Shown here: one piece after another, positions 11,123 through 25,923 of the stretch
Layout: every line of letters starts with the position of its first letter
How positions within the stretch are numbered: position 1 is the first letter of the stretch
Origin: Vampirovibrionaceae bacterium NZW_1234
GTDB taxonomy: Bacteria; Cyanobacteriota; Vampirovibrionia; Vampirovibrionales; JAGQHJ01
DNA length: 64,000 bases
Reading direction: 5' to 3'
NCBI GenBank assembly: GCA_041697335.1
Contig: JBGUGD010000001.1
Span: 32,001 to 96,000 of the forward strand
Translations under genes and position numbers: made by a program
The notes under the pieces: model-generated
What the model saw: the letters and a program-made list of their open reading frames with translations, nothing else
Database searches by the model: none
What the model was told of the DNA's origin: nothing

Positions 11123-14100
11123 TTAATTTTGGAAGGCCCGGTAGAACTTTTGGGGGAGTTTTTCGGTGTCCATGATGACGCCTAAACGCTCCAGGAGCTT
11201 GTTGAAGTCCTGGTTGACGCCAAGGCGCTGGGCCGCTTGCACGGCTTTGACTGCATCCAGGGCGCCGGCGCCATCCACGCCGTCGTTGAGCTGATAGGCG
11301 GTGTCGGCCATGATTTTCTTGAACTGCTCGGTGTCCAGTGGGCGTCCTGCTGCCTGACTCATCAGAAGGGCCACAGCCGCCGTGACCGGGGCACTGAAGG
11401 AGGTACCGTCGGCTTCACCACTGGCCAGATCCCCGTTGGGTGCTCTGTCTAGAAGGGGCAGGTGGGTGCCCATGGCCATGATGTTGGGCGGAATGGCGTT
11501 AAACACATCCTGCATGCTGCTGAACCAGGAGGCCTTGTGTTGCGTGCGATCGGCGGAGCCCAGCGTATCGATGGCCCCCACCAGGATGACCCCTTTGCTC
11601 TGGGCCAGCTTGCCGTTTTCCTTGTGGAAGCCCAGGGCGTTCAAGGTGCCTACCAAGTGGTGGTTCAGGGTATCGCCGCGTTCGTTTCCGGCAGAAATGA
11701 TGAAGGTAATCCCGGCTTCGCTACCGGCTTTGAACCGGGCGCCCAGTTTGTTCAGGTAGCCTTTGACAGTGGTATCGTCGCCATACAGTAGGGCGGAGGT
11801 GCCGCCCAGGGAAATGTTGACTACCGAGACCTTGCTCTTGCCACTGGTGCGCTGGGCAATGATATCATCGATAGACCGGAGCAGGCCGTCGACTTGTTCA
11901 ATGGTGGCGCCTTTTTCCGGGAATTTCGCATCATCCCAGGCGGCGTAGCTCCAGATTTTTTCCACGCCCGGGGCAATGCCGTACTTTTTATTGGCAATGA
12001 CATCGGCCACGGTTTCGCCGTGGAAGGACTCTCTTAAGGCCATATCCCGGGTGCGTCCCCAGGTGGGGTAAACCACCTTGCCTTTGAAGCTGTCGATATC
12101 GTCGTTGATGTAGTCGCCGTCGATAATGGCAATTTCCGTGCCCCGGCCGTCAATGCCTTTTTTGTGCAGCTCATCGATGCCCAGCGAGGTGGCCAGCAGA
12201 TAAGAGGCGACTCGGTTGTCTTTCATGTAATTGGTTTTGCCGTTGCTGTTATGGATCAGGGCATTGGCAATGGCCCGGCGCAACACGGTGTTGGGTGTTT
12301 TTTCCATGAACTTCAGCAGATCCTCGCCGCCGCCATGACGCTCGATGGCTTGGGCATAGAGGTTTTTAATGAAACTGTTCATGCGATCGCCGGCTTCCAA
12401 ATCGACTTTGGGCATGCGGGTCATCAGGCGGGTGGCCAGCTCGGTGCGCTTTTGCAGAACCGCTTTGTCGGCGCTGGTTTCCGTGTTTTTGCCAATCTCG
12501 CCCAGGGCGTTGATGGCGAAAAAGTGGATGCGGCGATTGTCACTGCGAAGGGCTTTTTCCAGAAGCTCGGTATCGTCCATATTGCCGGATTTGCCCAAGG
12601 CCTTGATGGCGGCCAGGCGGGTCCCTTGGGCTACCTGCATCTTGGTATGGCCCGGGAACATGAACTGGTCGTTGGAGGAGGCGATATCCGGAATCTGGGT
12701 CCGGGCCAAGGGATCGCGAATCAGATCCTTCAGGGCGGGCTTCATGGATTCATCGCGCATTTCACCCAGGCTGCTGATCATCAGGATGCGTAAAAAGCCG
12801 TCGACATCTTCGGTTTTGCTGACATAGGTCCGCATGGCGTCGGCATGGGCTTTAAATTCCGGCTTGGCGGCCAGATCCTGCCATTTTTTGCCGAAGGACG
12901 AATAGCTCTTCACGCGCTGTTCGACAATACCCTGGGTGGCTTCATCCAGGGCTTTGCCCGAAGCATTCAGGCGTTGCAGGGCTTTTCGGACATCGCGGAT
13001 TTCGTTGAAAATTTCCGACTTGTAAAAGCTCTTGGTAAATTGCGGGTGGGTGCTGTACACGGCCGCATACTTTTGCAGCGAGCGCAAACGATTGGTATTG
13101 GTTTTCATGTCCCCGCCCAGAGATGGGGTCAGGATCTCATGGACCGAGGCCAGGGCATCGAACCGCGTATCGCTGTCTTCCATTTTATCGGTCGCAATGG
13201 TCATCAGGCTTTTAATGGCGGTTTCGTCTTTCAGCATGGCGCTGCCGACCATGGCCATGCGGCGCAGGGTGCGGTTGTCCTCGGAATTGGTTTGCAGCGT
13301 ATTGCTGTAGATGTCCTGAAACAGGGGGCCTGCCTTCTGGAGCTTCATGCTGCTGAGGAGGGAAATCCCCAGTTTGCGAAGCTTAACGGAGTTTTGTTGG
13401 ATCTTTTCGTTCAGCTGTTTCTCGACTTTGGGATCCGGGGTGGAAGAGCTGGATGCCGGTTTGGCCGTGACTTCCCGGACTTTGACCTGGGCCTGTTTGA
13501 GGCTCGCAAAATCCAGCAGCTGGTTTTGGACATCGTCTTTCTGGTGTTTGAAATACTCGATGGTTTTTTCAAACACAGTGTCGTTGTCCTGGAAGTACAA
13601 GGGGTAGGCTGCCATTTGTTTCAACAGGATGGGGGCGGCTTCCGGCTGTCGGTCGTCCAGTAAATAAGTGATAATGCGCTGGGCGCCTTTTTCGGGGAAG
13701 GATCCCGGAGGGGGTTCCGAGCCGCCGCCGAAAATAAAGGTGACTTTTTCGCCTTTGGCCGGAGGCATGACGGGGGCTTTTTCCGCGGGTGGGGCGGGTT
13801 TTGCCACGGTATCCTGAGGGACAATCAGTTTTTCCACCTTGGTCCATATGGTTTTGTTTTCATGGCGCAAGAGGACGCCGACGGTGGCTGCCGTGAGATC
13901 CGGCTGATCCGCCACTTTGAGTTGATCCAGAAACTTCAGCATCTCTTCGCCGACAGCTTTGTCCTGAGGTGCATAGCGAAGGGCTTCCAAGGACATCAGC
14001 CGGTTGGACATAGGCAATGTCACTTCCTGGGCGGCTTCCATCAGTTGGGCCTTGGTGCGGGGATCCGCCGTGCGACCCAGGGAGCGGGCGGCAATCAGGC

Positions 14101-14671
14101 GCAGATCCTTGACCACATATTTGGAACTGTCTTCCAGCTCCTCTACCTCGTCCGGGCTCATAAACCGGGAGGCTTTGGGGCGTTCACCGTCTTTGGTTTT
14201 CTCGGAGACCACCACTTTGAGCATATACGGCATGATGGCCTTGCTGAATTCTTCCCGATCGGCCGCGTTGCCTTTGGCACCCAGCTTGCCCAAGGCCTGG
14301 ACTGCTGCCTTGAGGGTGTATTCACTGGCAACGCCGTCGCTTAAAATGCGCTTGATATGGGGAATGGCATCGCGTTCGTTAATCTCCCCGGCATTGTGCA
14401 GGGCAGCTGCCACGAGGTCATCATCGGTGCTTTCCAACTGCTTGACCAGCTTTGCGCTTTCCGGGGTGACGGCGGCTTTGGCCGAATCCGTAAAGACAGG
14501 TGCAAATAAGCCTGCCGTGGCCAACGCGGCAACGGGAAGAAAGGCGCTTTTTCTCACCGGCCCCGATTCGCGTTGACTGCCAAAAACAGGCGATGCCTGA
14601 CGGGCTGCTGTGGACGTTGCTGTTTTCGGCAGACGATATGCAGGCACATGGCCGAATTGAATGGTCACCAT
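11123..14671 (-). CDS. HEAT-repeat protein with C-terminal S8 subtilisin-like protease
   Basis: IAIIDGD (Asp), FHGETVA (His), SAGNE (oxyanion Asn), DGTSFSAP (Ser); HEAT-like units AAVQALGKLG, RLAAIKALGKSG, FAINALGEIG. Confidence 0.85.
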   Translation of the reverse strand: MVTIQFGHVPAYRLPKTATSTAARQASPVFGSQRESGPVRKSAFLPVAALATAGLFAPVFTDSAKAAVTPESAKLVKQLESTDDDLVAAALHNAGEINERDAIPHIKRILSDGVASEYTLKAAVQALGKLGAKGNAADREEFSKAIMPYMLKVVVSEKTKDGERPKASRFMSPDEVEELEDSSKYVVKDLRLIAARSLGRTADPRTKAQLMEAAQEVTLPMSNRLMSLEALRYAPQDKAVGEEMLKFLDQLKVADQPDLTAATVGVLLRHENKTIWTKVEKLIVPQDTVAKPAPPAEKAPVMPPAKGEKVTFIFGGGSEPPPGSFPEKGAQRIITYLLDDRQPEAAPILLKQMAAYPLYFQDNDTVFEKTIEYFKHQKDDVQNQLLDFASLKQAQVKVREVTAKPASSSSTPDPKVEKQLNEKIQQNSVKLRKLGISLLSSMKLQKAGPLFQDIYSNTLQTNSEDNRTLRRMAMVGSAMLKDETAIKSLMTIATDKMEDSDTRFDALASVHEILTPSLGGDMKTNTNRLRSLQKYAAVYSTHPQFTKSFYKSEIFNEIRDVRKALQRLNASGKALDEATQGIVEQRVKSYSSFGKKWQDLAAKPEFKAHADAMRTYVSKTEDVDGFLRILMISSLGEMRDESMKPALKDLIRDPLARTQIPDIASSNDQFMFPGHTKMQVAQGTRLAAIKALGKSGNMDDTELLEKALRSDNRRIHFFAINALGEIGKNTETSADKAVLQKRTELATRLMTRMPKVDLEAGDRMNSFIKNLYAQAIERHGGGEDLLKFMEKTPNTVLRRAIANALIHNSNGKTNYMKDNRVASYLLATSLGIDELHKKGIDGRGTEIAIIDGDYINDDIDSFKGKVVYPTWGRTRDMALRESFHGETVADVIANKKYGIAPGVEKIWSYAAWDDAKFPEKGATIEQVDGLLRSIDDIIAQRTSGKSKVSVVNISLGGTSALLYGDDTTVKGYLNKLGARFKAGSEAGITFIISAGNERGDTLNHHLVGTLNALGFHKENGKLAQSKGVILVGAIDTLGSADRTQHKASWFSSMQDVFNAIPPNIMAMGTHLPLLDRAPNGDLASGEADGTSFSAPVTAAVALLMSQAAGRPLDTEQFKKIMADTAYQLNDGVDGAGALDAVKAVQAAQRLGVNQDFNKLLERLGVIMDTEKLPQKFYRAFQN

Positions 14672-14866: not shown

Positions 14867-15502
14867 TCATCTGGGGAAGGTGTGTTGCCGGATCCACTTT
14901 GTGGCAACCCATTTCTCGCCGCGGATAACCGGGCTGGACCCATGCCAGGTTTGCCAGTCGACCTCCCCGTCGGCGTCGGTATTAAAGAACACCAGCGCCA
15001 TGCCTTTTTGAGGGGGGATGCTGAGGTGAATATGGGGAAAAATGGTTTCCCCACCCGATTCAACATCATTGAGATACAACAGTACCGTAATGTAACGCTG
15101 GCCGCCACGAGCCAGTTCCCGGGAGCGCCCGGGTGTTTTGGGGTTGAAAAAGTCATAGTGGGGAATATATTCCTCCCCAGGGCCGTAATGCAGCACCTGT
15201 AAATCTTCGCCATTCTCCAAAGGCATCTCCAACCACTGGGCCAAGCGTTGCTCAATGCCGGAAACCACGGCATCGCCCTGGAACGGTAAAAAGGTTACCG
15301 TGCTGGTTCTGGCCGAGTGGGTAATGCGCTCGCCCGTATCCGGATCCAGGACCGTGGCCCGCTGCATGGTGGGCGTTGCCAGGTCAATAATATGTCGGCA
15401 TTCGGCCTCTGTGAGAAATCCGGGGTATTGCCAGATGCTGGGTTTAAAACTGAGGCGCGTCAGCACGGGCTTTGGGGCTTTGGGCTTAAACAGGGTCCAC
15501 AT
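14867..15502 (-). CDS. Prolyl 4-hydroxylase (2OG-Fe(II) oxygenase)
   Basis: FLTEAECRHII, ENGEDLQVLHY, PHYDFF (HxD), GGQRYITVLLYLNDVESGGET.FP, WHGSSPV, GEKWVATKW. Confidence 0.9.
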   Translation of the reverse strand: MWTLFKPKAPKPVLTRLSFKPSIWQYPGFLTEAECRHIIDLATPTMQRATVLDPDTGERITHSARTSTVTFLPFQGDAVVSGIEQRLAQWLEMPLENGEDLQVLHYGPGEEYIPHYDFFNPKTPGRSRELARGGQRYITVLLYLNDVESGGETIFPHIHLSIPPQKGMALVFFNTDADGEVDWQTWHGSSPVIRGEKWVATKWIRQHTFPR

Positions 15503-15536
15503 CGGCTAAATTCGTCCTTGCGCTTGAAATGCTGTA

Positions 15537-16220
15537 TCAGGGGGTTCTTCTGGGGCGCGTGTATTCAGCTTCCCTGACCCATTTGGTGGCCACCCACTTC
15601 TCCCCGGCCAGGACCGGGGATGAGCCATGCAAGGACTCCGGGTCCAATTCGCCGTTGGCATAGACGTTATAAAACAGGAGGGCATCTCCTTGTCTGGGCC
15701 TAATCGTCAAGCCCGCAGTGGGGAAGATGGTTTCTCCACCGGATTCGACAGTGTTCAGGTACATGAGAATGGTGATGACCCGTTGACCGCCATAATTTAA
15801 AGTCTTGTGACTTCCGACACGGGCGGGATCAAAATAATCGTAATGCGGGCGGTATTCCTGGCCGATCTGGTAATTCAGAATCTGGATGTCTTCGCCATTT
15901 TCTACCGGTAACCCGCATAATTGGGCCAACCGTTCCTCGATGGTCGCCACAAAACTGTCCTGGCCCGGTTTGAGCATGACCAATGAACTGGTTCTGCCTT
16001 CCGATTGCAGGTTCTCTCCGGTCTCTAAATCGAAGGTCGTTGCCCGTGTGAGGTTCCCTTGGGCCATTTGGATCAGGGTTTCGCATTCCTCGGGTGTCAA
16101 AAAATCTTCGGCCAACCAGACACTGGGACATTCCGACAGATGAATCAGTGGTTTTACATCCACTTCCAAGTCTTCCATTGGGGTTGTGAGTTGCATAGGG
16201 GCTGGGGTCCTTGATGACAC
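15537..16220 (-). CDS. Prolyl 4-hydroxylase, tandem paralog
   Basis: FLTPEECETLI, PHYDYF, GGQRVITILMYLN, LHGSSPVLAGEKWVATKW. Confidence 0.9.
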   Translation of the reverse strand: MSSRTPAPMQLTTPMEDLEVDVKPLIHLSECPSVWLAEDFLTPEECETLIQMAQGNLTRATTFDLETGENLQSEGRTSSLVMLKPGQDSFVATIEERLAQLCGLPVENGEDIQILNYQIGQEYRPHYDYFDPARVGSHKTLNYGGQRVITILMYLNTVESGGETIFPTAGLTIRPRQGDALLFYNVYANGELDPESLHGSSPVLAGEKWVATKWVREAEYTRPRRTP

Positions 16221-16498
16221 ACTTACGAATACTGTGGGTTTACCCTGGTTTTGAATTTAACACAGTGGGTTGGGTTCAATTGCGTTACATATGACGTTTG
16301 TAAAAAAAAGGAAACATTGACATTGAATTTATAGAAAAAGGTTGCATGGAATTTTTAAAACCCGACAATGGTGCCTACTGTTTTTCAATTAAATGTTAAA
16401 ACTTTAAAGGTTATTTAAGCAATCGTGTCTTTTGTTTCGGAACTGTAAGTTGCGTTTGGCGATATCAAGACACATCGACAGTTGAGGAGTTTCTAGTA

Positions 16499-19400
16499 AT
16501 GAAAATTTCATTCCCTGGCGTGGGTTCGGAGCGAAAAACGAGTCTACCTCAAGCCCACACGGAAGGTCAGATGGTCTTGCACGCGCCTTCGGCAACACCT
16601 CGATTTTCGGGAGACGCTGGGGGCCGTCCCGCTCGTGCCGGTTTGTTGGCTCGGTTGATGGGGGCCGCTGCGTTTCTGCTTCCGGCCTCGCTGCCCTTGG
16701 TAACCCCAGCCACCCTTCAAGCGCAACAACCGGGACAACCCCAAAAAGTCTATACCGATCAGCGGCCTGATGGCACCCGCATTGAGTCGGTGGACTCGCC
16801 CCAGGATTTGAATCACCTGATCGAATTGCTCAGACAAGATAACCGAAACATTGTTCAACCGTTCAAACAGCCGTTGGTGAGTGAAAAGACGGAACAACGC
16901 GTCAACCAGCTGGTTCAACGCTTGCAAGACAAGCAGCTGGGCCACCTGAAAGTCATTATCGTCAACCGCTCCAATACGGGAAATCGCTTTTTTAACCTGG
17001 CCGAAGACATTCAGAGTTCCTTGCGCCTGGGCCGCAATAATACGATTTTAATCAATGCCGGTGCCCTTCGAGGTGAGTCAGGTGGCAAGCGGATTGCGGT
17101 GACCAACACCCAGTCCATGCTCGAGGCCATGCGGCTTTCCGTGGGGCAGTTCAACCAGCAAAGCGGCAACATTCTGGATGCCCACTTTAAGCCTGCCGCA
17201 TTGGCGGGTGACTACGACAAAGCGGTTGAGGATACGGTTGAAGCCTTGGTGAAACTGGTTGAAGAGCGTGCGGCTCAGCAAAACGGTGGCGAACGACCCA
17301 CGCCTGCCCCCGGTGGCAGTTCTGGTCCGACCATGGATGCTGAGACCACCAAGACGGTTTTTGGGGTGCTGTGCTTCCTGTTTTTTGCCGTCGGCGCCGG
17401 TGGGTTTGGTGTTCTGGTGGCGCGCCAGATGATGAAAAAGCGCCAGCAAGTCCAAGGCAACGTGAATGTGGCAAAGGCCGTCTTGAATGACATTGGATCC
17501 GGGTATGAAGTGGATCGCGGCAACCTGTATTCCATTCCCACGCTGACGGCCTTGTTGCAGCCTACGGGCTCTCCTCAGGCCCACCAGCTGCAAGCGGTTT
17601 TTAATGATATTGAAACCACGTTGGAGAAGAAAAACGCCTCGGGTGACAGTGCCCTGGTGCAACGTCAGCAACTGAAGGAACTGTATCTGAAAGAAGGGTT
17701 GAGCCATCCCAACGCCTTGGTGCGTAACTTCTTTGCCAAACGGTTCCTGTCCAAATTTGAGTTTGATGCCCAAGCCAAACAAACCTTTTATGCCCGCATT
17801 GCCGAAGAAAGCGATGGCGCCGTTGTCGAATCCCTCTCCAAGCCCTTGGTGGAAAAAGCGACAGCTGAGGATCGTCCCAAGTTTCTGGAAGGCCTCTCCA
17901 GTAAATTGGATGGCTGGCGTCAGTTGAGCGTGAACATGCTCGCCAAGCTGTATCAGCCGGGTGATGCCGATACGTTTTGGAAAGCTCTGGCGACAGAAAC
18001 CGATGTCGATGTGAAAGGCGCGCTGAATAAGGCTTTGTTGGCTCATCCCAATGACATCCCTGGCGATACGCTGAAGGCGGCTTTGGCAGCAGAAAACGTG
18101 GCGCAAAAAGAAGCTGCTATTGCTCTTTTAGCCAAGCAGGGTGAATTTACCACGTTATTCGATGCGGCCGAGCAGGAAGCCAATCCGGATTTCCAGAAAT
18201 CTTATCAGGTGGCCTTGAAGGACGCTGTCTCTGAGGCGTCCCTGCCCAAATTGAAGGAAGCCCTTCAAGGGTCCGATGTCGCATCGGCCTTGGCCTTGGC
18301 TTTGCTGGTTCCGGTTGCTCACAAAGAGAAAGCACAGGCCGGAAATGCGGCCCTGGCTGCATTTCATAAAACCCTGGCCAAGTCCCCGGAGACCCCGGAT
18401 CTGGTCGAAAGCCTCTTCGGGCTGGTGGTGTCCGGTTCTGCCGACAAAGCGGAACAAGCCTCCCAAGCGGTCGCTCATCTGGCCAACAAGGCAAGTAAAG
18501 GAAAACTGCTTGCCGCGCTAGGCAGTGACGCGAGTCTGGCTCGTTTGACAGCGGCCAATGCCCTTGATGGGTTGACCGAGGCTGCTGATCTGGAGTCGTT
18601 GCTCAAGGCCAAATCGAGTGAGCAGGATGATAGTGTACGGCAGGCTCTGGAGAAACCAGTAAAGACGGCTCTTAAATCGTCTGGGGCATTCGATACCCTT
18701 ACCGGTTTGTTGGTGAGCCGGTCTGCTTCCGTGCCAACCCAACTTCTAGCCATTCAACACATGACCGAATTTGACAGCAAAGCCGTTCAGCCCTTGGTTG
18801 CCTTGTATGAGGCCACTGAGAATAAGGAGCTGGATAACGCGGTTGAGGAAAGTCTGGAGGCCATTTCACGGGCCTCTGAAGAAGGTACGGAAGCCCTGAT
18901 GGGCTTTGTGGACGCCAGCAAAAAGCAGACCAAGAAAATGGCGGCTAAAATTGTGGCTCAAACCGTGACGCAATGGGCTGAATCCAAGACCTATGATAGC
19001 GCCAAAGCCATGACGCTCTTGCGGACCTGGAAAGATCATGACAATAAGGCCGTTAGCGCCGCAGCGAAACTGACCTACAATGCCCTGGTGGACAAGAAAG
19101 TCGTCGAGGTCAAAACCGAAGCGGCTGAGCGCTACAGTGAAGCTCGCATTAAAAAATTGAAGGCCTTGAGAGATTCTGCCCCGGAACAAACTATTCAGGA
19201 TGCGGCGGAAGAAACCATAACGGCATTGACGGCTAAAAGACCCAAACCGACCCCGCAGAAACCGTATGGAACTCCTTCTCCTTACGGGGGTGGTTCTTCT
19301 TCCGGCGGAAGACGGTCTTATGATCCGCCGCCCTCTGGTGGTGGTGTCGTAATTTTCCCGTCACCCTCGTACGATCCGCCTCCGCCGTCGTACTACCCGC

Positions 19401-19537
19401 CGCCGCCATCCTATTACCCGCCTCCACCAAGTTACTATCCTCCCTCGTATGATCCGCCTCCGTCCTATGACCCGCCACCATCATACGATCCACCCCCGTC
19501 CTATGATCCCCCTTCCGGTGGTGGCAGTGACTGGTAG
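16499..19537 (+). CDS. TPM-domain membrane protein with HEAT-like helical repeats and SY(D/Y)PPP tail
   Basis: Leader ...PRFSG, signal-like segment, TPM-like domain (LVSEKTEQRVNQLVQRLQ...FKPAALAGDYDKAVEDTVEAL), one TM, Ala/Leu-rich helical repeats, ends GGGSDW like YgcG-type TPM proteins; GAGGAG RBS. Confidence 0.7.
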   Translation: MKISFPGVGSERKTSLPQAHTEGQMVLHAPSATPRFSGDAGGRPARAGLLARLMGAAAFLLPASLPLVTPATLQAQQPGQPQKVYTDQRPDGTRIESVDSPQDLNHLIELLRQDNRNIVQPFKQPLVSEKTEQRVNQLVQRLQDKQLGHLKVIIVNRSNTGNRFFNLAEDIQSSLRLGRNNTILINAGALRGESGGKRIAVTNTQSMLEAMRLSVGQFNQQSGNILDAHFKPAALAGDYDKAVEDTVEALVKLVEERAAQQNGGERPTPAPGGSSGPTMDAETTKTVFGVLCFLFFAVGAGGFGVLVARQMMKKRQQVQGNVNVAKAVLNDIGSGYEVDRGNLYSIPTLTALLQPTGSPQAHQLQAVFNDIETTLEKKNASGDSALVQRQQLKELYLKEGLSHPNALVRNFFAKRFLSKFEFDAQAKQTFYARIAEESDGAVVESLSKPLVEKATAEDRPKFLEGLSSKLDGWRQLSVNMLAKLYQPGDADTFWKALATETDVDVKGALNKALLAHPNDIPGDTLKAALAAENVAQKEAAIALLAKQGEFTTLFDAAEQEANPDFQKSYQVALKDAVSEASLPKLKEALQGSDVASALALALLVPVAHKEKAQAGNAALAAFHKTLAKSPETPDLVESLFGLVVSGSADKAEQASQAVAHLANKASKGKLLAALGSDASLARLTAANALDGLTEAADLESLLKAKSSEQDDSVRQALEKPVKTALKSSGAFDTLTGLLVSRSASVPTQLLAIQHMTEFDSKAVQPLVALYEATENKELDNAVEESLEAISRASEEGTEALMGFVDASKKQTKKMAAKIVAQTVTQWAESKTYDSAKAMTLLRTWKDHDNKAVSAAAKLTYNALVDKKVVEVKTEAAERYSEARIKKLKALRDSAPEQTIQDAAEETITALTAKRPKPTPQKPYGTPSPYGGGSSSGGRRSYDPPPSGGGVVIFPSPSYDPPPPSYYPPPPSYYPPPPSYYPPSYDPPPSYDPPPSYDPPPSYDPPSGGGSDW
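19316..19516 (+). repeat. Coding repeat: nine SY(D/Y)PP(PP) units
   Basis: SYDPPPSGGGVVIFPSPSYDPPPPSYYPPPPSYYPPPPSYYPPSYDPPPSYDPPPSYDPPPSYDPPS, with varied codons. Confidence 0.95.
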
Positions 19538-19552
19538 GTCTGCAAGGAGTTT

Positions 19553-21718
19553 TTGATGAATCCGATCACGAAAATTGATGCTCTGTCCCTGCGCTTTGGC
19601 ATGGCCTTGCCCGAAGGGGACCCCGCGTCCCAGTCGGCGGCTTATGCCGGTGCCAACGAGCTAAGGGCCTGGTTGAAAGAGGCCGATAAAAGAATGGATG
19701 ATATGGTGTTTAAGCCTGTCAACCAAGCGCCTCCTGAAACCACCCTGTCTAAAGCCAAGGCGGCGTTGAAACGAGTGCTACTGCCCTTGGCGGGCTTATC
19801 GGCGCTTTTGATTACTTCGGCTGCCAGTAATCGGGCTCATACCCAGAGTATTACCGGCAATCCGTTTTCGGCCTATGGGCACAGTCAGGATGCGCGGCCT
19901 CGGATCTATCCCAATTGGCAGCGTTTGTCAGAAGTGACACAAACGGCCCAGGCCACGGGGAAAACCCAGGATCCCCAAATGATCGGGCAATTCGTCGATC
20001 GTTATCACGGGTTTTTATACCAGGTCATGGGGGTCTTGCGGGATCATCCGGGCATGCTGGATCAGGCCCTTCAGGATAAGTTGGCCAGAACACCGGACTT
20101 TCGCCCCAACTCCAACCTGCGAAGCTATGCCAATGATTTTATTGATTTTATGAAGCGCGAGATCAACCGTCTTGGCGTGGCCTATGATCCGGATCGCCCC
20201 ACCAGCCCAATCCCGGGACCGGATGTGATCAATCAGGTCGACATCAAAGGCAAGTTCCTGGATAATTTGCCGGAGTTAGGTGTGCCCCAGGATCGGCGCC
20301 AGGAGTTTGCCGATGCGCTTCGAGAGGCGTTTAAACGCAGTGTGCGTTCACCCAAGTCCAGTGATTTTATGGATATCTTTGTGGCCTCCGTGGGCACCGG
20401 TGTGGATGGGGTGACCCTGGATGAATTTGCAGGCGCCCATACCCGAGAGGATGCCCAGCGCTTGCTGGATAAAACGTTAAACAACAGCAATAACTTTAAA
20501 AACTGGACGCCTGCCGAGCGGGATGCCTTAAAAAAACGGGTCAACCAGATTTTAGGGGGCGTCAACAGCCAGTCCCATGATGTCCTGCTGATGCTCCTCA
20601 CGTCTCTGGCGGGTTTGGGAGCCGTGGGTGTGGCAGCGCTTTATAACAAGCGTTTTATTGGCGCCGTCCAAGCGCTTGCAGTTGGGGTTCCCAAGGGCCT
20701 TCGTGAATCGGTTCTGGTGATTAACACGGCGGATATGAATAACCCGCAGGTGCGTCAATATTTAGGCAATGCCTTTGGGCTGTTGAAAGATGAAGCCCAA
20801 AGTGCGGCCGATCTGTTTGCTGCCAGCTTTGAAAACAGTTCGGATTTTCAAGAGCAATGGCGAGCCCTGGGGAAATCCCAAAAAGACTTGCCGACGGCCG
20901 ATGATATCCTGCAACAAGTGCTCTATGACGTTAAAGAAGCGTCGAAAAACGATCGGACATTTTTGCAGCGATGGAAAGAAGAACCCCTGTCCGAGCTGGC
21001 CTTTGTCCAGGCGTTGGTGAATGCCTTTGAAGAGGGCAAGGAATCCGGGGCGCTCTTTGTGAAGTTGGGGATGCCTCAAGGGACGGTCACTCCCACTGAG
21101 ACCGATGTTGCCAAGGCGAAGGATCCTGTGGATGCCCTTCGGATTCGCCGTCAAGTTGTGCAACATAAACTGCGTGATGCGCGTAAACTGTTCCTGCAGC
21201 ATACGTTAATGGCACTGCAGGTGGATGCTGAAATTGCCAAACATCAGCAGGCAATCTCGGATATTGCGAGACAGGCCCGCATTGCCAATGTCTTAACGGA
21301 TGAAGCGAAGAAGAAACAGCAACGGTCCCAGCTCGGGGCTCAATTGTTGGAGCGAGAAGCGGCCCTGAAAGCCGCCAACGCCCGGAAGAAAACCACAGAC
21401 GAACTCCTGCTTCGGACAAAGTTGACGATTCGGGATGCTGTTGCGGATTACTCGCGACACCTTGAGCAACTGAACGAATGGATTCAGCGAGGCGAACATG
21501 TGGCTCAGCGTGAGCAACTGTTGGCTTTGAGAGACAAATCGAAGCAAGAGCTGGATGATCCGAGATTGAACGAAATTACCGAGGATATTTTGGATCAGGA
21601 AGCGATGCAGGCAGCCATTGCCCAGCGCGAAGCCAAGGAAAAAGGTCAGTTGGTTGAGATTAAAACCCTTCTGCATCTGCCTGCACAAGGCGCCAGTGAT
21701 GCCGCCGGGGCTTCTTAG
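19553..21718 (+). CDS. Membrane protein with C-terminal PspA/IM30-like coiled coil
   Basis: LRFG leader, two hydrophobic segments, C-terminal KDPVDALRIRRQVVQHKLRDAR...ARQARIA...DDPRLNEITEDILDQEAMQAA. Confidence 0.55.
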   Translation: MMNPITKIDALSLRFGMALPEGDPASQSAAYAGANELRAWLKEADKRMDDMVFKPVNQAPPETTLSKAKAALKRVLLPLAGLSALLITSAASNRAHTQSITGNPFSAYGHSQDARPRIYPNWQRLSEVTQTAQATGKTQDPQMIGQFVDRYHGFLYQVMGVLRDHPGMLDQALQDKLARTPDFRPNSNLRSYANDFIDFMKREINRLGVAYDPDRPTSPIPGPDVINQVDIKGKFLDNLPELGVPQDRRQEFADALREAFKRSVRSPKSSDFMDIFVASVGTGVDGVTLDEFAGAHTREDAQRLLDKTLNNSNNFKNWTPAERDALKKRVNQILGGVNSQSHDVLLMLLTSLAGLGAVGVAALYNKRFIGAVQALAVGVPKGLRESVLVINTADMNNPQVRQYLGNAFGLLKDEAQSAADLFAASFENSSDFQEQWRALGKSQKDLPTADDILQQVLYDVKEASKNDRTFLQRWKEEPLSELAFVQALVNAFEEGKESGALFVKLGMPQGTVTPTETDVAKAKDPVDALRIRRQVVQHKLRDARKLFLQHTLMALQVDAEIAKHQQAISDIARQARIANVLTDEAKKKQQRSQLGAQLLEREAALKAANARKKTTDELLLRTKLTIRDAVADYSRHLEQLNEWIQRGEHVAQREQLLALRDKSKQELDDPRLNEITEDILDQEAMQAAIAQREAKEKGQLVEIKTLLHLPAQGASDAAGAS

Positions 21719-21726
21719 GAGAGGAC

Positions 21727-23454
21727 GTGATGATGTCGATGATTGCTTCTCTCCCCTCGCGTTCACACGGTCTTCGCACGGCTTTACCGCACTATCCTGC
21801 TTCCACGCACCCTCAGGTGCGGGTTCGCTTTGGTTCTGATGCCACTGCTCAGCCCCCGGCAAACGCTGGGACCGCAACCACCAAGCTGCCTCCCTTTACC
21901 CATGAAGGCTATATGTTTATCAGTCTTCTTTCGAACATGGAGCATCCCGCACCGGCCAAAACCGGCGCCCTGATTAATTTAATTAAAATTCTGACGGCTT
22001 CTCCCGATTTGACGGCTTATCTCAATAAGCAAGGCAGTCGGGCCATCGATATTTACCGGGGTGTGGATGAACAGTATTTGCCTTCGCTGAGAGCCAAAAT
22101 GCTGGAAAAGAAGCGTACACCCGGGTACCAGAAGCCTTTTTACGCCAAACTGAACGATGACGAGTTTGAGGAGCTGAAACAGTCCATTCGTCGTTTTGCG
22201 CAACAAAACGGCTTGGAGCGGGTCAATCCGATCACAATTTGGCATTGGTTGCTCAAAGAAGACAAAGACAATTTTGTCCGAAACGTTTTGGTGGAGTCCG
22301 GATTGACCACCGAACGCATTGCCGCCATGAAAAATCTGCCGATTCCCAAGCCGGAGCCACCGACGCCACCCGGTGGCGTCATTGTCGCTTCGAACAAGCG
22401 CCCCACCCGTGCCCAGTTGGAAACCATGGAAAAAGGCTTTGAGAAAGTTCCCCGAATCCTGGTAGGCCAAAAAGGGGCTGTTCGCAAGATTATGGAGTTT
22501 ATCCAGGAGCGCCAGATCGGGTACAAGATCGAGGATGAAATCAACGAACACCCCAATAAGCCCGATTGCAATATTCTGATTCTTGGCCCCTCCGGTGTGG
22601 GGAAAACCTTGCTGGGAAAGACCTTGGCTCACGTCTTGGAGCGGCCTCTGGTCAGCCGAAAGATGAACGAATACAAAGACTCTCAAAGTATTCGCCAACT
22701 CCTCGGTGCCGGGCCCGGTTACGTCGGCTATGGCAAGAAAAGTTTGGCCAGCGACATGATTGATGCCAATGAAAATACCCAGACCAAAGGTACCAATCCG
22801 CCAGTGGTGCTGTTTGATGAAATTGAAAAAATGGATGATGAAGCCTTTGAAGTGCTGATGCAGGCCTATGACGAAGGTGAGCTGCAAAGCGGCACCGGTG
22901 AGACGGCCTCGTTTAAAAATACCATTATCCTGAACACATCGAACCTGGCCCAGGATAAAATCAAGCAGGCCCAGGCCGAAGGCAAGAGCCCTCAGGAAAT
23001 TGAGAAAATCGTGAACGAGGCACTTGAAGGCCGTTATAAGCCTGAACAGTTGGGCCGCTTTGATCTGGTGGTTGTGTTTGAGTCTCTCACCGAAGATGAT
23101 TTCCGGGTTGTCCTGGAGCGTGACCTGGAGAAGCTGAAAGCCCATGTCAAAGACGTGGATCACATTAATCTTGCCATTGATCTGGAAGCCGTTAATCAGC
23201 TTCATAAAGCGGGCTACAGTCGCGATTTCGGGATCCGTCACCTGAAACGGACCATCAAGTCCAAATTGTTGTCGCCCCTGGCACAACAGCGTAAGCAATT
23301 GATTTTGCAGGATAAGTTAACCGATCGCCCGGACAATGGGACTTATTTTGTGAAACCGGGCGATAACGGCCAGTTAGCCATTACCTATCAACCCCCGGCG
23401 GAGCCAGTCGCTCAAGCTGCTGAGCCACCGCCAACCGCTTCAAGTCCCTCTTAA
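21727..23454 (+). CDS. Clp/Hsp100-type AAA+ ATPase with a single (D2-type) ATPase module
   Basis: Walker A GPSGVGKT, pore loop GPGYVGYG, Walker B VVLFDEIEK, FKNTIILNTSN, KPEQLGRFD, FGIRHLKRTI; Clp-N-like helical segment upstream. Confidence 0.9.
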   Translation: MMMSMIASLPSRSHGLRTALPHYPASTHPQVRVRFGSDATAQPPANAGTATTKLPPFTHEGYMFISLLSNMEHPAPAKTGALINLIKILTASPDLTAYLNKQGSRAIDIYRGVDEQYLPSLRAKMLEKKRTPGYQKPFYAKLNDDEFEELKQSIRRFAQQNGLERVNPITIWHWLLKEDKDNFVRNVLVESGLTTERIAAMKNLPIPKPEPPTPPGGVIVASNKRPTRAQLETMEKGFEKVPRILVGQKGAVRKIMEFIQERQIGYKIEDEINEHPNKPDCNILILGPSGVGKTLLGKTLAHVLERPLVSRKMNEYKDSQSIRQLLGAGPGYVGYGKKSLASDMIDANENTQTKGTNPPVVLFDEIEKMDDEAFEVLMQAYDEGELQSGTGETASFKNTIILNTSNLAQDKIKQAQAEGKSPQEIEKIVNEALEGRYKPEQLGRFDLVVVFESLTEDDFRVVLERDLEKLKAHVKDVDHINLAIDLEAVNQLHKAGYSRDFGIRHLKRTIKSKLLSPLAQQRKQLILQDKLTDRPDNGTYFVKPGDNGQLAITYQPPAEPVAQAAEPPPTASSPS

Positions 23455-23505
23455 TAATTATCTTGATTTGCGTATTGCTTCATCAGAAGAAAGGAGATCT
23501 GCGTT

Positions 23506-24432
23506 ATGCAAACGATTCATCTATCCCCCACGCAAGCCCAGGTGATGCGCCCAGGTCATCGCCCGGCTGCTGTGGCTCCCTCGATGGCCATGTTGACCTC
23601 GACCCGCCTTCAGGGGCAAACAGCAAACTCCGTCCGGTTTGGCGGGTTTGGTGTTAAAGCTATTGGTGAAACCATTGCGGCTAAGCTGGAATGGTGGGCA
23701 TGTAAGCTGCTCTTTATGTCCGATGAACAAATCATTCAGCGTCGGATTCGCAAGCATTCTGAGCGCAAAGAAATTGCCAATCAAGCCTTGGATCTTCAGG
23801 TGGCTGAAGAAATTAAAGCCAACAGCCGCTTGACGGCCCTACAGGCTGAGCGTCAAAACTTGTTTAATCAAGCATCAAGAAAGCGCGAATTGGCTAAGAA
23901 AGCTGCCGGAGATGCGCAAGCGGGCTTAAATGCGGAAGCAGCGGAATTGGCAAAACAGTTGAAAGCGAAAGATGCTGAAATCGAAGCCCAACAATCCGTG
24001 GTGAATGATGCAACTGTGATGGCAAATCGGGCTCGCCTCAGACATTCTGATCTGCAAGCGAAACTCGATAAATATCAACAGCAATTGAAAGCGCTGCAAA
24101 GCCGTACCAAAGTGGTGAAGCAAAAAGAAAAATTGCAAAAAGTCGAGGATGAAGCAGATCGCTTGGCTGGTAAGGCGGATGCTGCTGGAGATCCCATTAT
24201 GGATGCTATTCAAGGCAACATTGAAGACAGAGAAGCAATGTTGCAAGCACGTGATCAACGTAAAACGGGGGATCCAACCCAAATGCAACAACGTGTTGCG
24301 GCTCAGGAATTTGAGCGCCAGCAAGCGGAACAAGATGCATTAGCTGCCTTGGATGCTGAAATTGCCGCTAAAACCGGCGGGAATAAAGAAGACAAAAAGC
24401 CCGCCGATCGCTCTGACGAAGTCGAGAAATAA
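23506..24432 (+). CDS. PspA/IM30 (Vipp1, ESCRT-III superfamily)-like coiled-coil protein
   Basis: After the VRFG leader: amphipathic N-helix, SDEQIIQRRIR, long helical hairpin, DLQAKLDKYQQQLKALQSR, GDPIMDAIQGNIEDREAMLQAR, final ALAALDAEI helix. Confidence 0.65.
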   Translation: MQTIHLSPTQAQVMRPGHRPAAVAPSMAMLTSTRLQGQTANSVRFGGFGVKAIGETIAAKLEWWACKLLFMSDEQIIQRRIRKHSERKEIANQALDLQVAEEIKANSRLTALQAERQNLFNQASRKRELAKKAAGDAQAGLNAEAAELAKQLKAKDAEIEAQQSVVNDATVMANRARLRHSDLQAKLDKYQQQLKALQSRTKVVKQKEKLQKVEDEADRLAGKADAAGDPIMDAIQGNIEDREAMLQARDQRKTGDPTQMQQRVAAQEFERQQAEQDALAALDAEIAAKTGGNKEDKKPADRSDEVEK

Positions 24433-24460
24433 ATGATTTGATTTCAGTCTCATCGTCTTT

Positions 24461-24497
24461 AAAAGCACCCTCTGGATCATCCAGAGGGTGCTTTATT
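24461..24497 (+). terminator. Intrinsic (possibly bidirectional) terminator closing the 16.5-24.4 kb operon
   Basis: AAAGCACCCTCTGGAT-C-ATCCAGAGGGTGCTTT perfect inverted repeat. Confidence 0.85.
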
Positions 24498-24660
24498 TGG
24501 GTTCATCTGCAAGAAGTCGTCTGGAGTTGAGAAACCCAAGACACGCAATCAACTCATTAAGATGATGGATGTGGTGGTTCGAGGGAATTTTCTACAATAC
24601 CCAGTGAGATACTCTATCGCTTTTTGCAAGAACGAGTCAGAAAAGGGGTCAAGCAACGTG

Positions 24661-25923
24661 ATGGTCTTTGTTAATTTCTCGAAACGGATCCGCCGTGGTG
24701 TTGCCATGGTGACTTTGTTACTGACCTTGTTGCCCATGTTCACTGCAGGGCTTTATGCTGAGATGCCCTCAGATGGTCGGTTTCAGGCCATTGTAAACCG
24801 ACCTCTTACGAATGATAAGTTTGACGACGATTACATTCAATTTGTTGCCAATAAGTGGTTGCAAATCAAAGAACAAAAAGCCAGTATGCCTGCTGTTCTC
24901 AAGGGCAGTATCTCGAAAGGCGAAAGTGATTATATTTTGGGTGCCGGGGATACTTTGACTGTTGTTATTCCCTATTTATACAATTCCACGAATCGCAATT
25001 TAACCTTAAGACAACAGCAAACCCGAATTTTTGAAGATCCGCCGGAATCCATTGATGCGGTGATTCGGGCAAACGGAAAGGCCACGATTCCACCATTTGG
25101 GACTTTTACTGTCTCAGGGATGACGGTGACGGAATTCAATCAAATGCTGACCGAAATGGCAAAACTGTATCTGATTGAGCCCAGGGTTTATGTCAGTATT
25201 AAGAGCATGCGTCCCTACACCGTTTATATTACAGGAGAAGTGCAGCGGCCGGGTGGCTACCAAACCCTTAATGCCCCAGAAGCTGCGTATTTGTCCTTTG
25301 CCGATAATGCTTCAACAGACGCGAAAACCCAGCATTTTTATGAACCTCGCATTTCGTCTATGATCGTAAAAGCGGGCGGGATTCTTCCTTACGCCGATGT
25401 ACAAAATGTGAGTGTTACAAACACGCGCACCGGGAAAAATATCGTCGTCAATCTCGAGGACATTGTGGCCAAGGGCGACACATCTCAAGATTATGTGCTT
25501 CAACCGGATGATGTGATTCATGTTCCTCCCAGTAAAACTCAGGTCGCTCCTGAACTTTTAGCGTCGGTTATTGGTTCTGAAACGGTTATTGTCCGGGTCT
25601 TTGGCTATATGAATAAAGGGGGAAGTGGAAATACGGATGTGCGCTTGGATCCCAGATCGATGACGGCGTTAAACGCCCTCTCGCATGTTAATACCGACCC
25701 TGAGGCCGATTTGCGCCACTTGTATGTGTTGCGCAAACGCGAAGATGGGAATACCTTTGAAAAGTTTACCTTTAATGGTCTGGAACGGGATTTTCCGCTG
25801 CAACCCAATGATGTAGTGGTAGTTCCTCATCGCCGTCGCATCCATGAGATTCAGCAATTGCTCACGGCGGCATCAACATTACTGTTTGCTGGATTCTCTG
25901 GGGTTAATATTTTTAGACAGTGA
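24661..25923 (+). CDS. Polysaccharide export protein (Wza/SLBB domains)
   Basis: DYILGAGDTL, IRANGKATIPPFG, VYITGEVQRPGGY, DYVLQPDDVIHVP; start codon uncertain. Confidence 0.85.
   Translation: MVFVNFSKRIRRGVAMVTLLLTLLPMFTAGLYAEMPSDGRFQAIVNRPLTNDKFDDDYIQFVANKWLQIKEQKASMPAVLKGSISKGESDYILGAGDTLTVVIPYLYNSTNRNLTLRQQQTRIFEDPPESIDAVIRANGKATIPPFGTFTVSGMTVTEFNQMLTEMAKLYLIEPRVYVSIKSMRPYTVYITGEVQRPGGYQTLNAPEAAYLSFADNASTDAKTQHFYEPRISSMIVKAGGILPYADVQNVSVTNTRTGKNIVVNLEDIVAKGDTSQDYVLQPDDVIHVPPSKTQVAPELLASVIGSETVIVRVFGYMNKGGSGNTDVRLDPRSMTALNALSHVNTDPEADLRHLYVLRKREDGNTFEKFTFNGLERDFPLQPNDVVVVPHRRRIHEIQQLLTAASTLLFAGFSGVNIFRQ

Follow-up and report, generated by a model that had tools for sequence, protein, structure and literature searches.

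How polymers of the bacterial ESCRT-III proteins PspA and Vipp1 are disassembled is an open question, and a 2025 review, in the part of its text that is accessible, describes a Vps4-like ATPase as apparently absent in bacteria (PMC7619361). In Bacillus subtilis, according to the accessible text of the study concerned, the TPM protein SamH (YdjH) is part of a complex that recruits PspA (PMC13713150). The accessible portion of Ravi et al. 2024 (PMC11237479) reports PspA together with TPM membrane proteins (YdjH), as well as operons in which PspA is accompanied by a divergent Snf7 anchored in the membrane and by a classical AAA+ ATPase of two domains; ATP-dependent remodelling of the Snf7/Vps4 type was proposed for these. 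Here, a four-gene locus, g1 to g4 (16499-24432, + strand), is described from a window of 64,000 nucleotides (nt), which is the whole stretch of DNA analysed (G000:C8:32001-96000) and belongs to a Vampirovibrionales genome labelled G000 (3.7 Mb, 41 contigs, completeness 94.75%). An earlier note on this DNA had taken the combination of PspA-like proteins, a TPM protein and an AAA+ ATPase to be undescribed, and the operons reported by Ravi et al. overturn that claim as far as their accessible text goes. The locus is read here as a Psp/ESCRT-III-type module of the organism's own cytoplasmic membrane whose polymer would be recycled by the ATPase g3, and this reading is given a probability of roughly 55%. 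It would make the operon a compact candidate for the open question of disassembly, with a soluble PspA-like subunit, a tethered paralogue as a possible nucleator and an unfoldase confined to this context.

The two PspA-like proteins

Profile comparison and fold prediction showed that g4 (23506-24432, + strand; 308 residues) encodes a highly divergent homologue of PspA/IM30, within the ESCRT-III superfamily, and the PspA/IM30-like pattern seen in the earlier note was confirmed by AlphaFold2 (AF2), Foldseek, profile-profile comparison and retrieval with hidden Markov models (HMMs) in agreement. The AF2 model had a mean predicted local distance difference test (pLDDT) score of 66.5, with values of 88-98 in the hairpin and a disordered leader of about 50 residues. 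The predicted fold has helix alpha0, the alpha1-alpha2/3 hairpin, alpha4 and alpha5 as PspA/IM30 requires; the leader, with an RFG motif at residues 44-46, is followed by alpha0 (52-69), the two arms of the hairpin (73-132 and 136-224), helices at 230-252 and 257-290, and an acidic tail (291-308). When the model was compared with the PDB by Foldseek, Vipp1/PspA structures made up nine of the ten top matches (E 3.7e-4 to 6e-3), with alignments of 213-242 columns at 15-22% identity.

A profile of the g4 family (A4) matched 15 Vipp1/PspA sequences from the cyanobacterial phylum (hhalign 96.7%, E 3.8e-10, 215 columns) and a broader PspA set (97.8%, E 7.2e-13, 235 columns), and the match to Vipp1/PspA reaches from the amphipathic helix at the N-terminus as far as the C-terminal helix of LAxLKA type. 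The match is not a composition effect, because the controls were far weaker (E 0.003-0.78 overall; reversed alignments 0.003-0.03, ten column shuffles at least 0.19). Searching 301 genomes of the class with the A4 HMM retrieved proteins of 250-277 residues from other orders (E 4e-9 to 6e-7), and the two of these that were scanned each scored 135 bits on the Pfam profile PF04012. Among Pfam families, PspA_IM30 matched the most g4-family members (3 of 20 at E <= 1, best E 9.6e-6). For g4 itself, Pfam gave no family at E <= 0.1 apart from a coiled-coil fragment, the PDB gave no sequence match, and a six-frame search of G000 with PF04012 returned zero matches.

The g4 family is small: its profile found 15 proteins at E <= 0.001 among 1.84 billion representatives, and a word-index search (5.8 billion) found a single g4 relative. 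Of 41 order-sample genomes searched, a single one had a canonical PF04012 protein above cut-off, compared with 37 of 61 genomes in a phylum sample, the latter being rich in tandem Vipp1/PspA pairs of the kind seen in cyanobacteria; some gut-type genomes of the class retain a normal PspA. As the operon shows, non-photosynthetic relatives of cyanobacteria, most of them without a Pfam PspA match, retain a PspA descendant whose divergence hides it from routine annotation. A study of Vipp1 in photosynthetic lineages (PMC11304991) has, in its accessible text, no bearing on the g4 family. In an 8.2-Mb genome from another family of the class, three tandem genes (L084, L089 and L090; G178:C6:698685-701773) encode proteins in which an N-terminal transmembrane (TM) segment is joined to a domain missed by Pfam, whose relation to the g4 family was seen by hhalign (96.9%, E 2e-10); judged by profile comparison, this trio is another membrane-anchored PspA-like lineage.

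The product of g2 (19553-21718, + strand; start codon TTG) is a 721-residue membrane protein with an RFG leader (residues 14-16), a first TM segment (70-93), a helical domain predicted to be periplasmic (about 94-343), a second TM segment (344-362), a cytoplasmic helical region and a PspA-like hairpin. Positive charges sit N-terminal of the first TM segment and after the second in the hydropathy and charge profile, and therefore the middle domain of about 250 residues is predicted to lie outside and the C-terminal 360 residues inside. In the AF2 model, the C-terminal domain (residues ~520-707; 21110-21673, + strand) has helices at 525-578, 584-666 and 670-707 (pLDDT ~65-90). That this domain, placed behind TM segments, is related to g4 had been proposed from the sequence, and the proposal held: BLASTP aligned g2 with g4 at 25% identity over 115 residues (E 0.002), a profile of nine g2 C-termini matched A4 (hhalign 89-90%, E ~2e-6, 161 columns corresponding to alpha1-alpha5; reversed control E ~0.05), and AF2 predicts a hairpin. 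Thus, g2 is probably a membrane-anchored paralogue of g4, and its link to ESCRT-III is transitive, through g4. No Pfam family matched the g2 C-terminus at E <= 0.1, an ESM Atlas search with the periplasmic domain (residues 100-340) gave no usable match, and a word-index search found no relative besides g2 itself. A solitary g2 paralogue was also seen on another contig of G000 (C34:213129-215282; L013 8130-10283); it has 717 residues, an RFS leader and a family-profile E of 3.5e-224, stands without g1, g3 or g4 alongside, and has neighbours that look by eye like a polyphosphate kinase and an exopolyphosphatase.

The Clp-type ATPase, the TPM protein and the makeup of the loci

Domain searches and alignment with ClpB showed g3 (21727-23454, + strand; start codon GTG) to encode an intact ATPase with a single module of the ClpB nucleotide-binding domain 2 (NBD2) type and a private N-domain, that is, a 575-residue single-ring Clp/Hsp100-type AAA+ protein, as had been supposed. 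The module (residues 279-521; 22561-23289, + strand) comprises AAA_2 (279-447, 108.8 bits) and ClpB_D2-small (454-521, 41.6 bits). Residues 237-521 aligned with NBD2 chains of Thermus thermophilus ClpB (E 1.8e-42), bringing into register the Walker A (GPSGVGKT), Walker B (DEIEK), pore-loop (GYVGY), sensor-1 (TSN) and sensor-2 (GIR) motifs and the Arg of LGRFD, and the catalytic and pore motifs are invariant in the four aligned orthologues. PDB chains of CLPB homologues matched g3 at E 1e-20 to 1e-24, and the NCBIfam TssH (155 bits) and ClpA models matched as well. The NCBIfam ClpB match reached 191.9 bits against a cut-off of 1232 and placed only residues 239-521 onto ClpB positions 561-829; with one AAA_2 domain only, g3 is not a two-module ClpB class I chaperone. 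Pfam and NCBIfam scans found no MIT domain and did not place g3 in the Vps4 clade, and the Pfam scan found no DNA-binding domain. The loop that docks ClpP is expected downstream of Walker B, and no tripeptide of the IGF/IGL type was found after Walker B when the sequence was read by eye.

The N-domain of g3 (residues 55-240; 21889-22446, + strand) is conserved in five orthologues. Its language-model features lie nearest to Clp_N clusters (0.90), which is a lead only and leaves a Clp_N identity unconfirmed. The domain spans about 185 residues without an AAA signature, and Pfam assigned it to no family in any of the four orthologues scanned (E <= 10); a PDB profile search returned no Clp chain, and hhalign against the N-domain of the genome's own ClpC gave E 0.089. 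The ATPase also matches two PADLOC defence families, PDC-M37B (84 bits) and DolB (64 bits), which would fit anti-phage defence by a system centred on a ClpB-like ATPase. These matches, however, cover the generic AAA+ module only, none of the other three proteins (0/3) matched a defence family, and the ORF lists (open reading frames) show no mobile-element or defence-island context, so that defence is a most improbable explanation.

Conservation was examined in the order, which comprises 49 species genomes. The g2 profile matched 11 of these at E <= 0.001, G000 included; one match (G005, weak, E ~3e-4) was taken as spurious, the ORF there having no similar gene context, and that in G029 was likewise weak (E ~3e-4). 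All four genes occur in the order g1-g2-g3-g4 in G000, G020 and G038. The arrangement g2-g3-g4 was found in G003, where the contig begins inside g2, and on contig C127 of G042, which is cut inside a g2-like gene and carries HMM matches to g2, g3 and g4 at E 1.7e-18, 6.2e-120 and 4.9e-22; the g4-like gene of G042 was overlooked by the broad genome profile search and detected by hmmsearch. In G022, G034 and G012, g1-g2-g4 stand together with 32-63 nt between g2 and g4. On contig C206 of G042, g1-g2 are followed by the contig end, and G023, which alone in the order sample has a canonical PspA, carries only a 1443-residue HEAT protein and g2. The two g2-type genes of G042 lie on separate short contigs, one after g1 (L029, C206) and one before g3-g4 (L067, C127), and could be paralogous systems or two strains in the bin (completeness 83%, contamination 5%).

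Locus comparison thus showed g1-g2-g4 to be the conserved core, found in a few Vampirovibrionales. The expectation that all four genes would be co-conserved held for these three and was weakened for g3, which is present in five of the eight loci with visible g4 flanks and missing from three. ATPases with the g3-type N-domain were found in only 5 of the 49 order genomes; the other four loci found among 185,579 species genomes belong to these same genomes, and a search of metagenome contigs with the N-domain alignment (A7) found no locus. Every g3-type gene is flanked by a g2-type and a g4-type gene (5/5).

The C-terminus of g4 differs between the two kinds of locus. After the LAxL helix, g4 proteins from g3-bearing loci carry a spacer rich in G, S and T and an acidic end (6/6), with ends such as SDEVEK, GADVKK, GEDVKR, NPVDEAFPTEKK and SSDPFDD. 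This arrangement is found in none of the three without g3 (0/3), where g4 stops directly after the LAxL helix, in two cases with a basic end. Ends of the NPVDxD type occur in five more g4-family members whose gene context was not seen. The acidic tail is likely a handle for g3, judged from this small and related sample. Complex prediction with the g3 N-domain (55-240) and g4 (50-308) returned a score of 0.00 and no verdict, which is evidence neither way.

The first gene, g1 (16499-19537, + strand), encodes a 1012-residue scaffold protein identified from the ORF list and Pfam. It has an RFS leader (residues 35-37), a weakly hydrophobic signal or TM segment (47-71), a TPM domain (126-252; 16874-17254, + strand), a strong second TM segment (290-308) followed by a charge of +4, about 600 residues of HEAT-type repeats (HEAT_2, 34.2 bits) and a Pro/Gly-rich tail. 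The PF04536 TPM score of g1 is 21.9 bits, just below the cut-off of 22.1; two of six orthologues are above it (42.5 and 24.9 bits), two are sub-threshold and two have no match. By way of its orthologues, g1 therefore has the TPM build, a TPM domain followed by a TM segment and then a low-complexity tail, and the TPM-TM-helical-repeat architecture first proposed for it is upheld. The TPM domain is predicted to lie outside and the HEAT repeats in the cytoplasm. Tandem repeats with periods of 21 and 18 nt at the 3' end (19367-19506, + strand) encode PPPSYY/PPPSYD units, and this Pro-rich tail is replaced in orthologues by Gly/Ser-rich tails.

As the earlier note had observed, the four genes are co-directional, tightly spaced (gaps of 15, 8 and 51 nt for g1/g2, g2/g3 and g3/g4) and closed by a strong terminator. 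This intrinsic-terminator-like hairpin (24462-24494, + strand; 15-pair stem with 8 G-C pairs, 3-nt loop) begins 29 nt past the g4 stop and is the strongest, with by far the longest stem, of the 18 terminator-like sites in 15500-25500, a number at chance level (14.3 +/- 3.3 in shuffles). The layout suggests that g1-g4 form one operon. Eleven DNA sequencing runs, labelled as hot-spring or microbial-mat metagenomes, contain this sequence.

Upstream of g1, in divergent orientation, lie two 2-oxoglutarate (2OG)-Fe(II) oxygenase genes (14867-15502 and 15537-16220, - strand; 2OG-FeII_Oxy_3, 62 and 59 bits), which look prolyl 4-hydroxylase-like by eye. An oxygenase-like ORF, likewise judged by eye, also lies about 5.5 kb off the G022 locus (L011 1250-1882). 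The oxygenases and the PPPSYY/PPPSYD tail of g1 could be an enzyme-substrate pair for prolyl hydroxylation. Further out (11123-14671, - strand) is a gene for a 1182-residue HEAT protein with a C-terminal S8 subtilase domain, FG motifs (IQFG, PVFG) at its N-terminus and then a hydrophobic segment; g1 and this neighbour share no sequence similarity (best E 0.41). A Wza-like polysaccharide exporter gene lies downstream of the operon.

A candidate membrane module and competing explanations

If the locus is a Psp/ESCRT-III-type module, g1 and g2 would be inner-membrane proteins with their N-termini inside, their TPM or helical domain exposed on the outer side and their large C-terminal domains cytoplasmic. 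Soluble g4 would bind the membrane via its amphipathic helix alpha0, and the tethered PspA-like domain of g2 would nucleate or anchor g4 polymerisation at the inner leaflet, with g1 as a sensor or scaffold in the manner of the TPM protein YdjH/SamH for PspA in B. subtilis. The resulting polymer would stabilise or reshape the organism's own cytoplasmic membrane. In ATPase-bearing loci, a g3 hexamer would capture the flexible acidic tail of g4 and thread g4 subunits through its Tyr pore loop, leading to disassembly of the polymer and its recycling; in function, g3 would resemble Vps4 acting on ESCRT-III or ClpV acting on the sheath of a type VI secretion system (T6SS), with a separate origin. 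The ATPase would be an add-on, and some other mode of turnover would have to serve the systems that lack g3. Polymer formation, co-polymerisation and disassembly driven by ATP are proposals here, and the mechanism, like the novelty, was put too strongly in the earlier note. The natural variants that lack the ATPase, together with the ATPase-linked subunit tail, make the operon a testable candidate, and its parts are suited to expression and to reconstitution in vitro.

Several results weigh against this reading. The g4 protein scores 10.7 bits on PF04012 against a gathering threshold of 33.9 (E 0.4), although the weak match is still collinear (residues 83-285 on profile positions 20-217 of 220), and the alignments used are shallow, with 6-20 sequences. 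When the geometry of g4 was compared by VIA-align, Vipp1 (Z 11.3, 208 residues aligned, root-mean-square deviation 25 A) was tied with YscO, FliJ, RipA and SMC-type hairpins (Z 10-12), and therefore geometry alone does not discriminate g4. Of the two ESCRT-III-like proteins originally claimed, g4 stands as such; for g2, the direct comparison with canonical PspA profiles reached E 0.15-0.6 only, which is no match, and Foldseek of the full-length g2 model returned nothing at E <= 0.001, with Vipp1 at ranks 28-47 (E ~1). The loci come from related genomes, G020 and G038 being of the same genus, so that locus counts are not independent, and the three loci that lack g3 mean that g3 is not essential to the core function. 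Among the listed sequencing runs containing this DNA, none is an RNA run. Finally, the leader shared by the four proteins is found genome-wide and could imply another location.

The tie among unrelated hairpins in VIA-align, the absence of a significant Foldseek match for g2 and the scores below Pfam thresholds would fit a convergent likeness to PspA, with g4 and the g2 C-terminus being coiled-coil hairpins of a generic kind that belong to a different structure, cytoskeletal or spanning the envelope. However, the profile-profile matches are collinear over the full length and far above the reversed and shuffled controls, plain HMM retrieval yields bona fide PspA, and the ends typical of the family, the N-terminal amphipathic helix and the C-terminal LAxL helix, are shared; convergence is accordingly rated as very doubtful.

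A different explanation accepts a Psp-like envelope module and denies that g3 is its disassembly motor: as a regulator or holdase, comparable to PspF in its binding of PspA, g3 would prevent the assembly of g4, or else it would extract g1 and g2 for quality control, and g4 would form a static membrane patch. Three of the eight loci work without the ATPase, and PspA's AAA+ partner in Proteobacteria has a regulatory role, according to the accessible text of the review (PMC7619361). Against this, g3 retains the threading Tyr of the pore loop and all ATPase motifs of ClpB NBD2 and has no DNA-binding domain, and a systematic difference in the g4 tails between loci with and without g3 is in keeping with a substrate tag. 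A g3 of this kind is considered unlikely, and recycling of a g4 polymer by g3 is preferred.

The leader bears on where the four proteins act. All four had been said to carry an RFG-type leader; this is so for g2, g3 (residues 34-36) and g4, and in g1 the motif reads RFS; in each protein it lies no further in than residue 46 (leader codons of g1 to g4 at 16601-16609, 19592-19600, 21826-21834 and 23635-23643, + strand). The N-terminus encoded by 11123-14671 (- strand) was counted as another example in the window. The motif takes the form (S)-[PLVI]-R-F-G within the first ~60 residues, its F shows no variation across the family alignments of g2 and g4, and it is a protein-level motif because its codons vary synonymously. 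Across the ORFs of G000, RFG occurs at 2.4% per 20-residue bin over residues 1-40 and about 0.4% further in, an enrichment of about 5-6-fold; in crude ORFs it was counted in 166/2829 within residues 1-60 and in 36/2324 within residues 121-180. A TM segment follows the motif in 14 of 232 RFG carriers, compared with 637 of 2829 ORFs that have one in the first 100 residues. Of 20 carriers drawn at random, 11 have no Pfam family, and among the others are a C39-like peptidase, a few enzymes and an FtsH-like protease. Two further G000 ORFs were seen with such leaders: an 862-residue atypical Clp-type ATPase (region C15:25636-26637; ARFGS) and a 987-residue FtsH-like AAA+/M41 protease with a long N-terminal extension (C25:44792-47755; VRFGA), so several AAA+ machines of G000 bear the leader.

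The share of ORFs with N-terminal RFG was counted over the whole genome for G000 and in samples of 320-400 kb for other genomes. Where the system is present, it was 5.9% in G000 (166/2829), 5.6% in G022 (14/248), 3.4% in G034 (11/320), 2.0% in G020 (7/347) and 1.3% in G012 (4/313); where it is absent, 1.3% in G008 (4/306) and 0.6% in G005 (2/331). Enrichment was likewise found in G022 and, more weakly, in G034, and was not found in G012, G008 and G005. The idea that the operon is a machine handling RFG-leader proteins was rejected, since RFG share and system presence show no clean correlation. The leader could serve in targeting, processing or export, and it does not track the system; a literature search for an N-terminal motif in Vampirovibrio gave nothing relevant among the matches listed.

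Were the leader an export or translocation signal, the four proteins could have their site of action beyond the producing cell, such as inside a prey cell or at its surface. The leader on all four proteins with its invariant F in the g2 and g4 families, the N-terminal RFG excess of G000, the few carriers with a TM segment after the motif and the many without a Pfam family all lend themselves to this account, and the order Vampirovibrionales includes a predator. Nevertheless, the topologies of g1 and g2 are those of ordinary resident inner-membrane proteins, and TPM proteins of the g1-like build are resident membrane proteins in the accessible text of PMC13713150; the sampled carriers include ordinary enzymes and an FtsH-like protease, and the leader frequency does not follow the system, as G012 (with it) and G008 and G005 (without it) illustrate. 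Export is therefore held to be improbable, and delivery into a prey cell, as the earlier note had raised, comes out neither supported nor excluded.

A more far-reaching form of the own-membrane reading is put forward tentatively. The locus may be an independent second invention of the ESCRT-III/Vps4 principle, in which a ClpB-NBD2-derived hexamer would read an acidic C-terminal tag on a divergent PspA and recycle a heteropolymer nucleated by an anchored paralogue under a TPM-HEAT sensor, in a lineage that has otherwise lost canonical PspA/Vipp1. Such a system could drive membrane remodelling proper (vesiculation, septum or attachment-site dynamics) and not repair alone, and the RFG leader may mark a common targeting route.

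Comparison with known systems

With the PspA/IM30 family (Vipp1, PF04012), g4 shares alpha0, the hairpin, alpha4, alpha5 and the C-terminal LAxL helix; it differs in its low identity (~13-20%), its score below the gathering threshold and the 50-residue disordered RFG leader that precedes alpha0. The principle proposed to be shared with ESCRT-III and Vps4 (CdvB and CdvC in archaea) is a membrane polymer of hairpin proteins dismantled by a hexameric AAA+ unfoldase via the subunit C-termini. The ATPase g3, in contrast, belongs outside the Vps4 clade and lacks an MIT domain, and no ESCRT-I or ESCRT-II parts are present here.

In ClpV/TssH and human CLPB/Skd3, as in g3, Clp/Hsp100-derived ATPases have been specialised through their N-domains. 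The polymer recycled by ClpV is the contracted sheath of the T6SS. Skd3 resembles g3 in having one NBD2-type module preceded by a different N-domain, whereas ClpV has two AAA+ modules to the one of g3, and the partner proteins are unrelated.

The pspA-ydjGHI (samGHI) operon of B. subtilis, as described in the accessible texts (PMC11237479, PMC13713150), encodes membrane proteins that recruit PspA and has a TPM partner in common with g1. It also has zinc-ribbon and SPFH/flotillin partners, the latter (SamI) linking PspA with the membrane proteins, and neither kind was seen among g1-g4; no Band_7/SPFH match was found in the four proteins scanned, the rest of the genome not having been searched. 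Beyond the B. subtilis set, the present locus has about 600 residues of HEAT repeats in g1, a further PspA-like protein that is anchored in the membrane, and an ATPase of Clp type.

The PspA/TM-Snf7/AAA+ operons of Ravi et al., in what is accessible of that paper, each combine a soluble protein of the ESCRT-III superfamily, a membrane-anchored one and an AAA+ ATPase, as is the case here. The ATPase of those operons consists of an inactive and an active classical AAA domain, whereas g3 has a single Clp/Hsp100 NBD2-type module; their anchor has a signal, a TM segment and a Snf7-like domain, whereas the anchor here is PspA-like, has a periplasmic domain between two TM segments and is joined by a TPM-HEAT scaffold. 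They may also include ABC transporter and PBPB-OmpA genes. The literature searched held no description of the present system, of a Clp-type partner or of this architecture. Taken together, and as far as the accessible texts extend, PspA with TPM proteins and PspA with TM-Snf7 and AAA+ proteins are already known, and what is new in this locus is the combination of a Clp/Hsp100 NBD2 motor, a PspA-type anchor and a HEAT scaffold.

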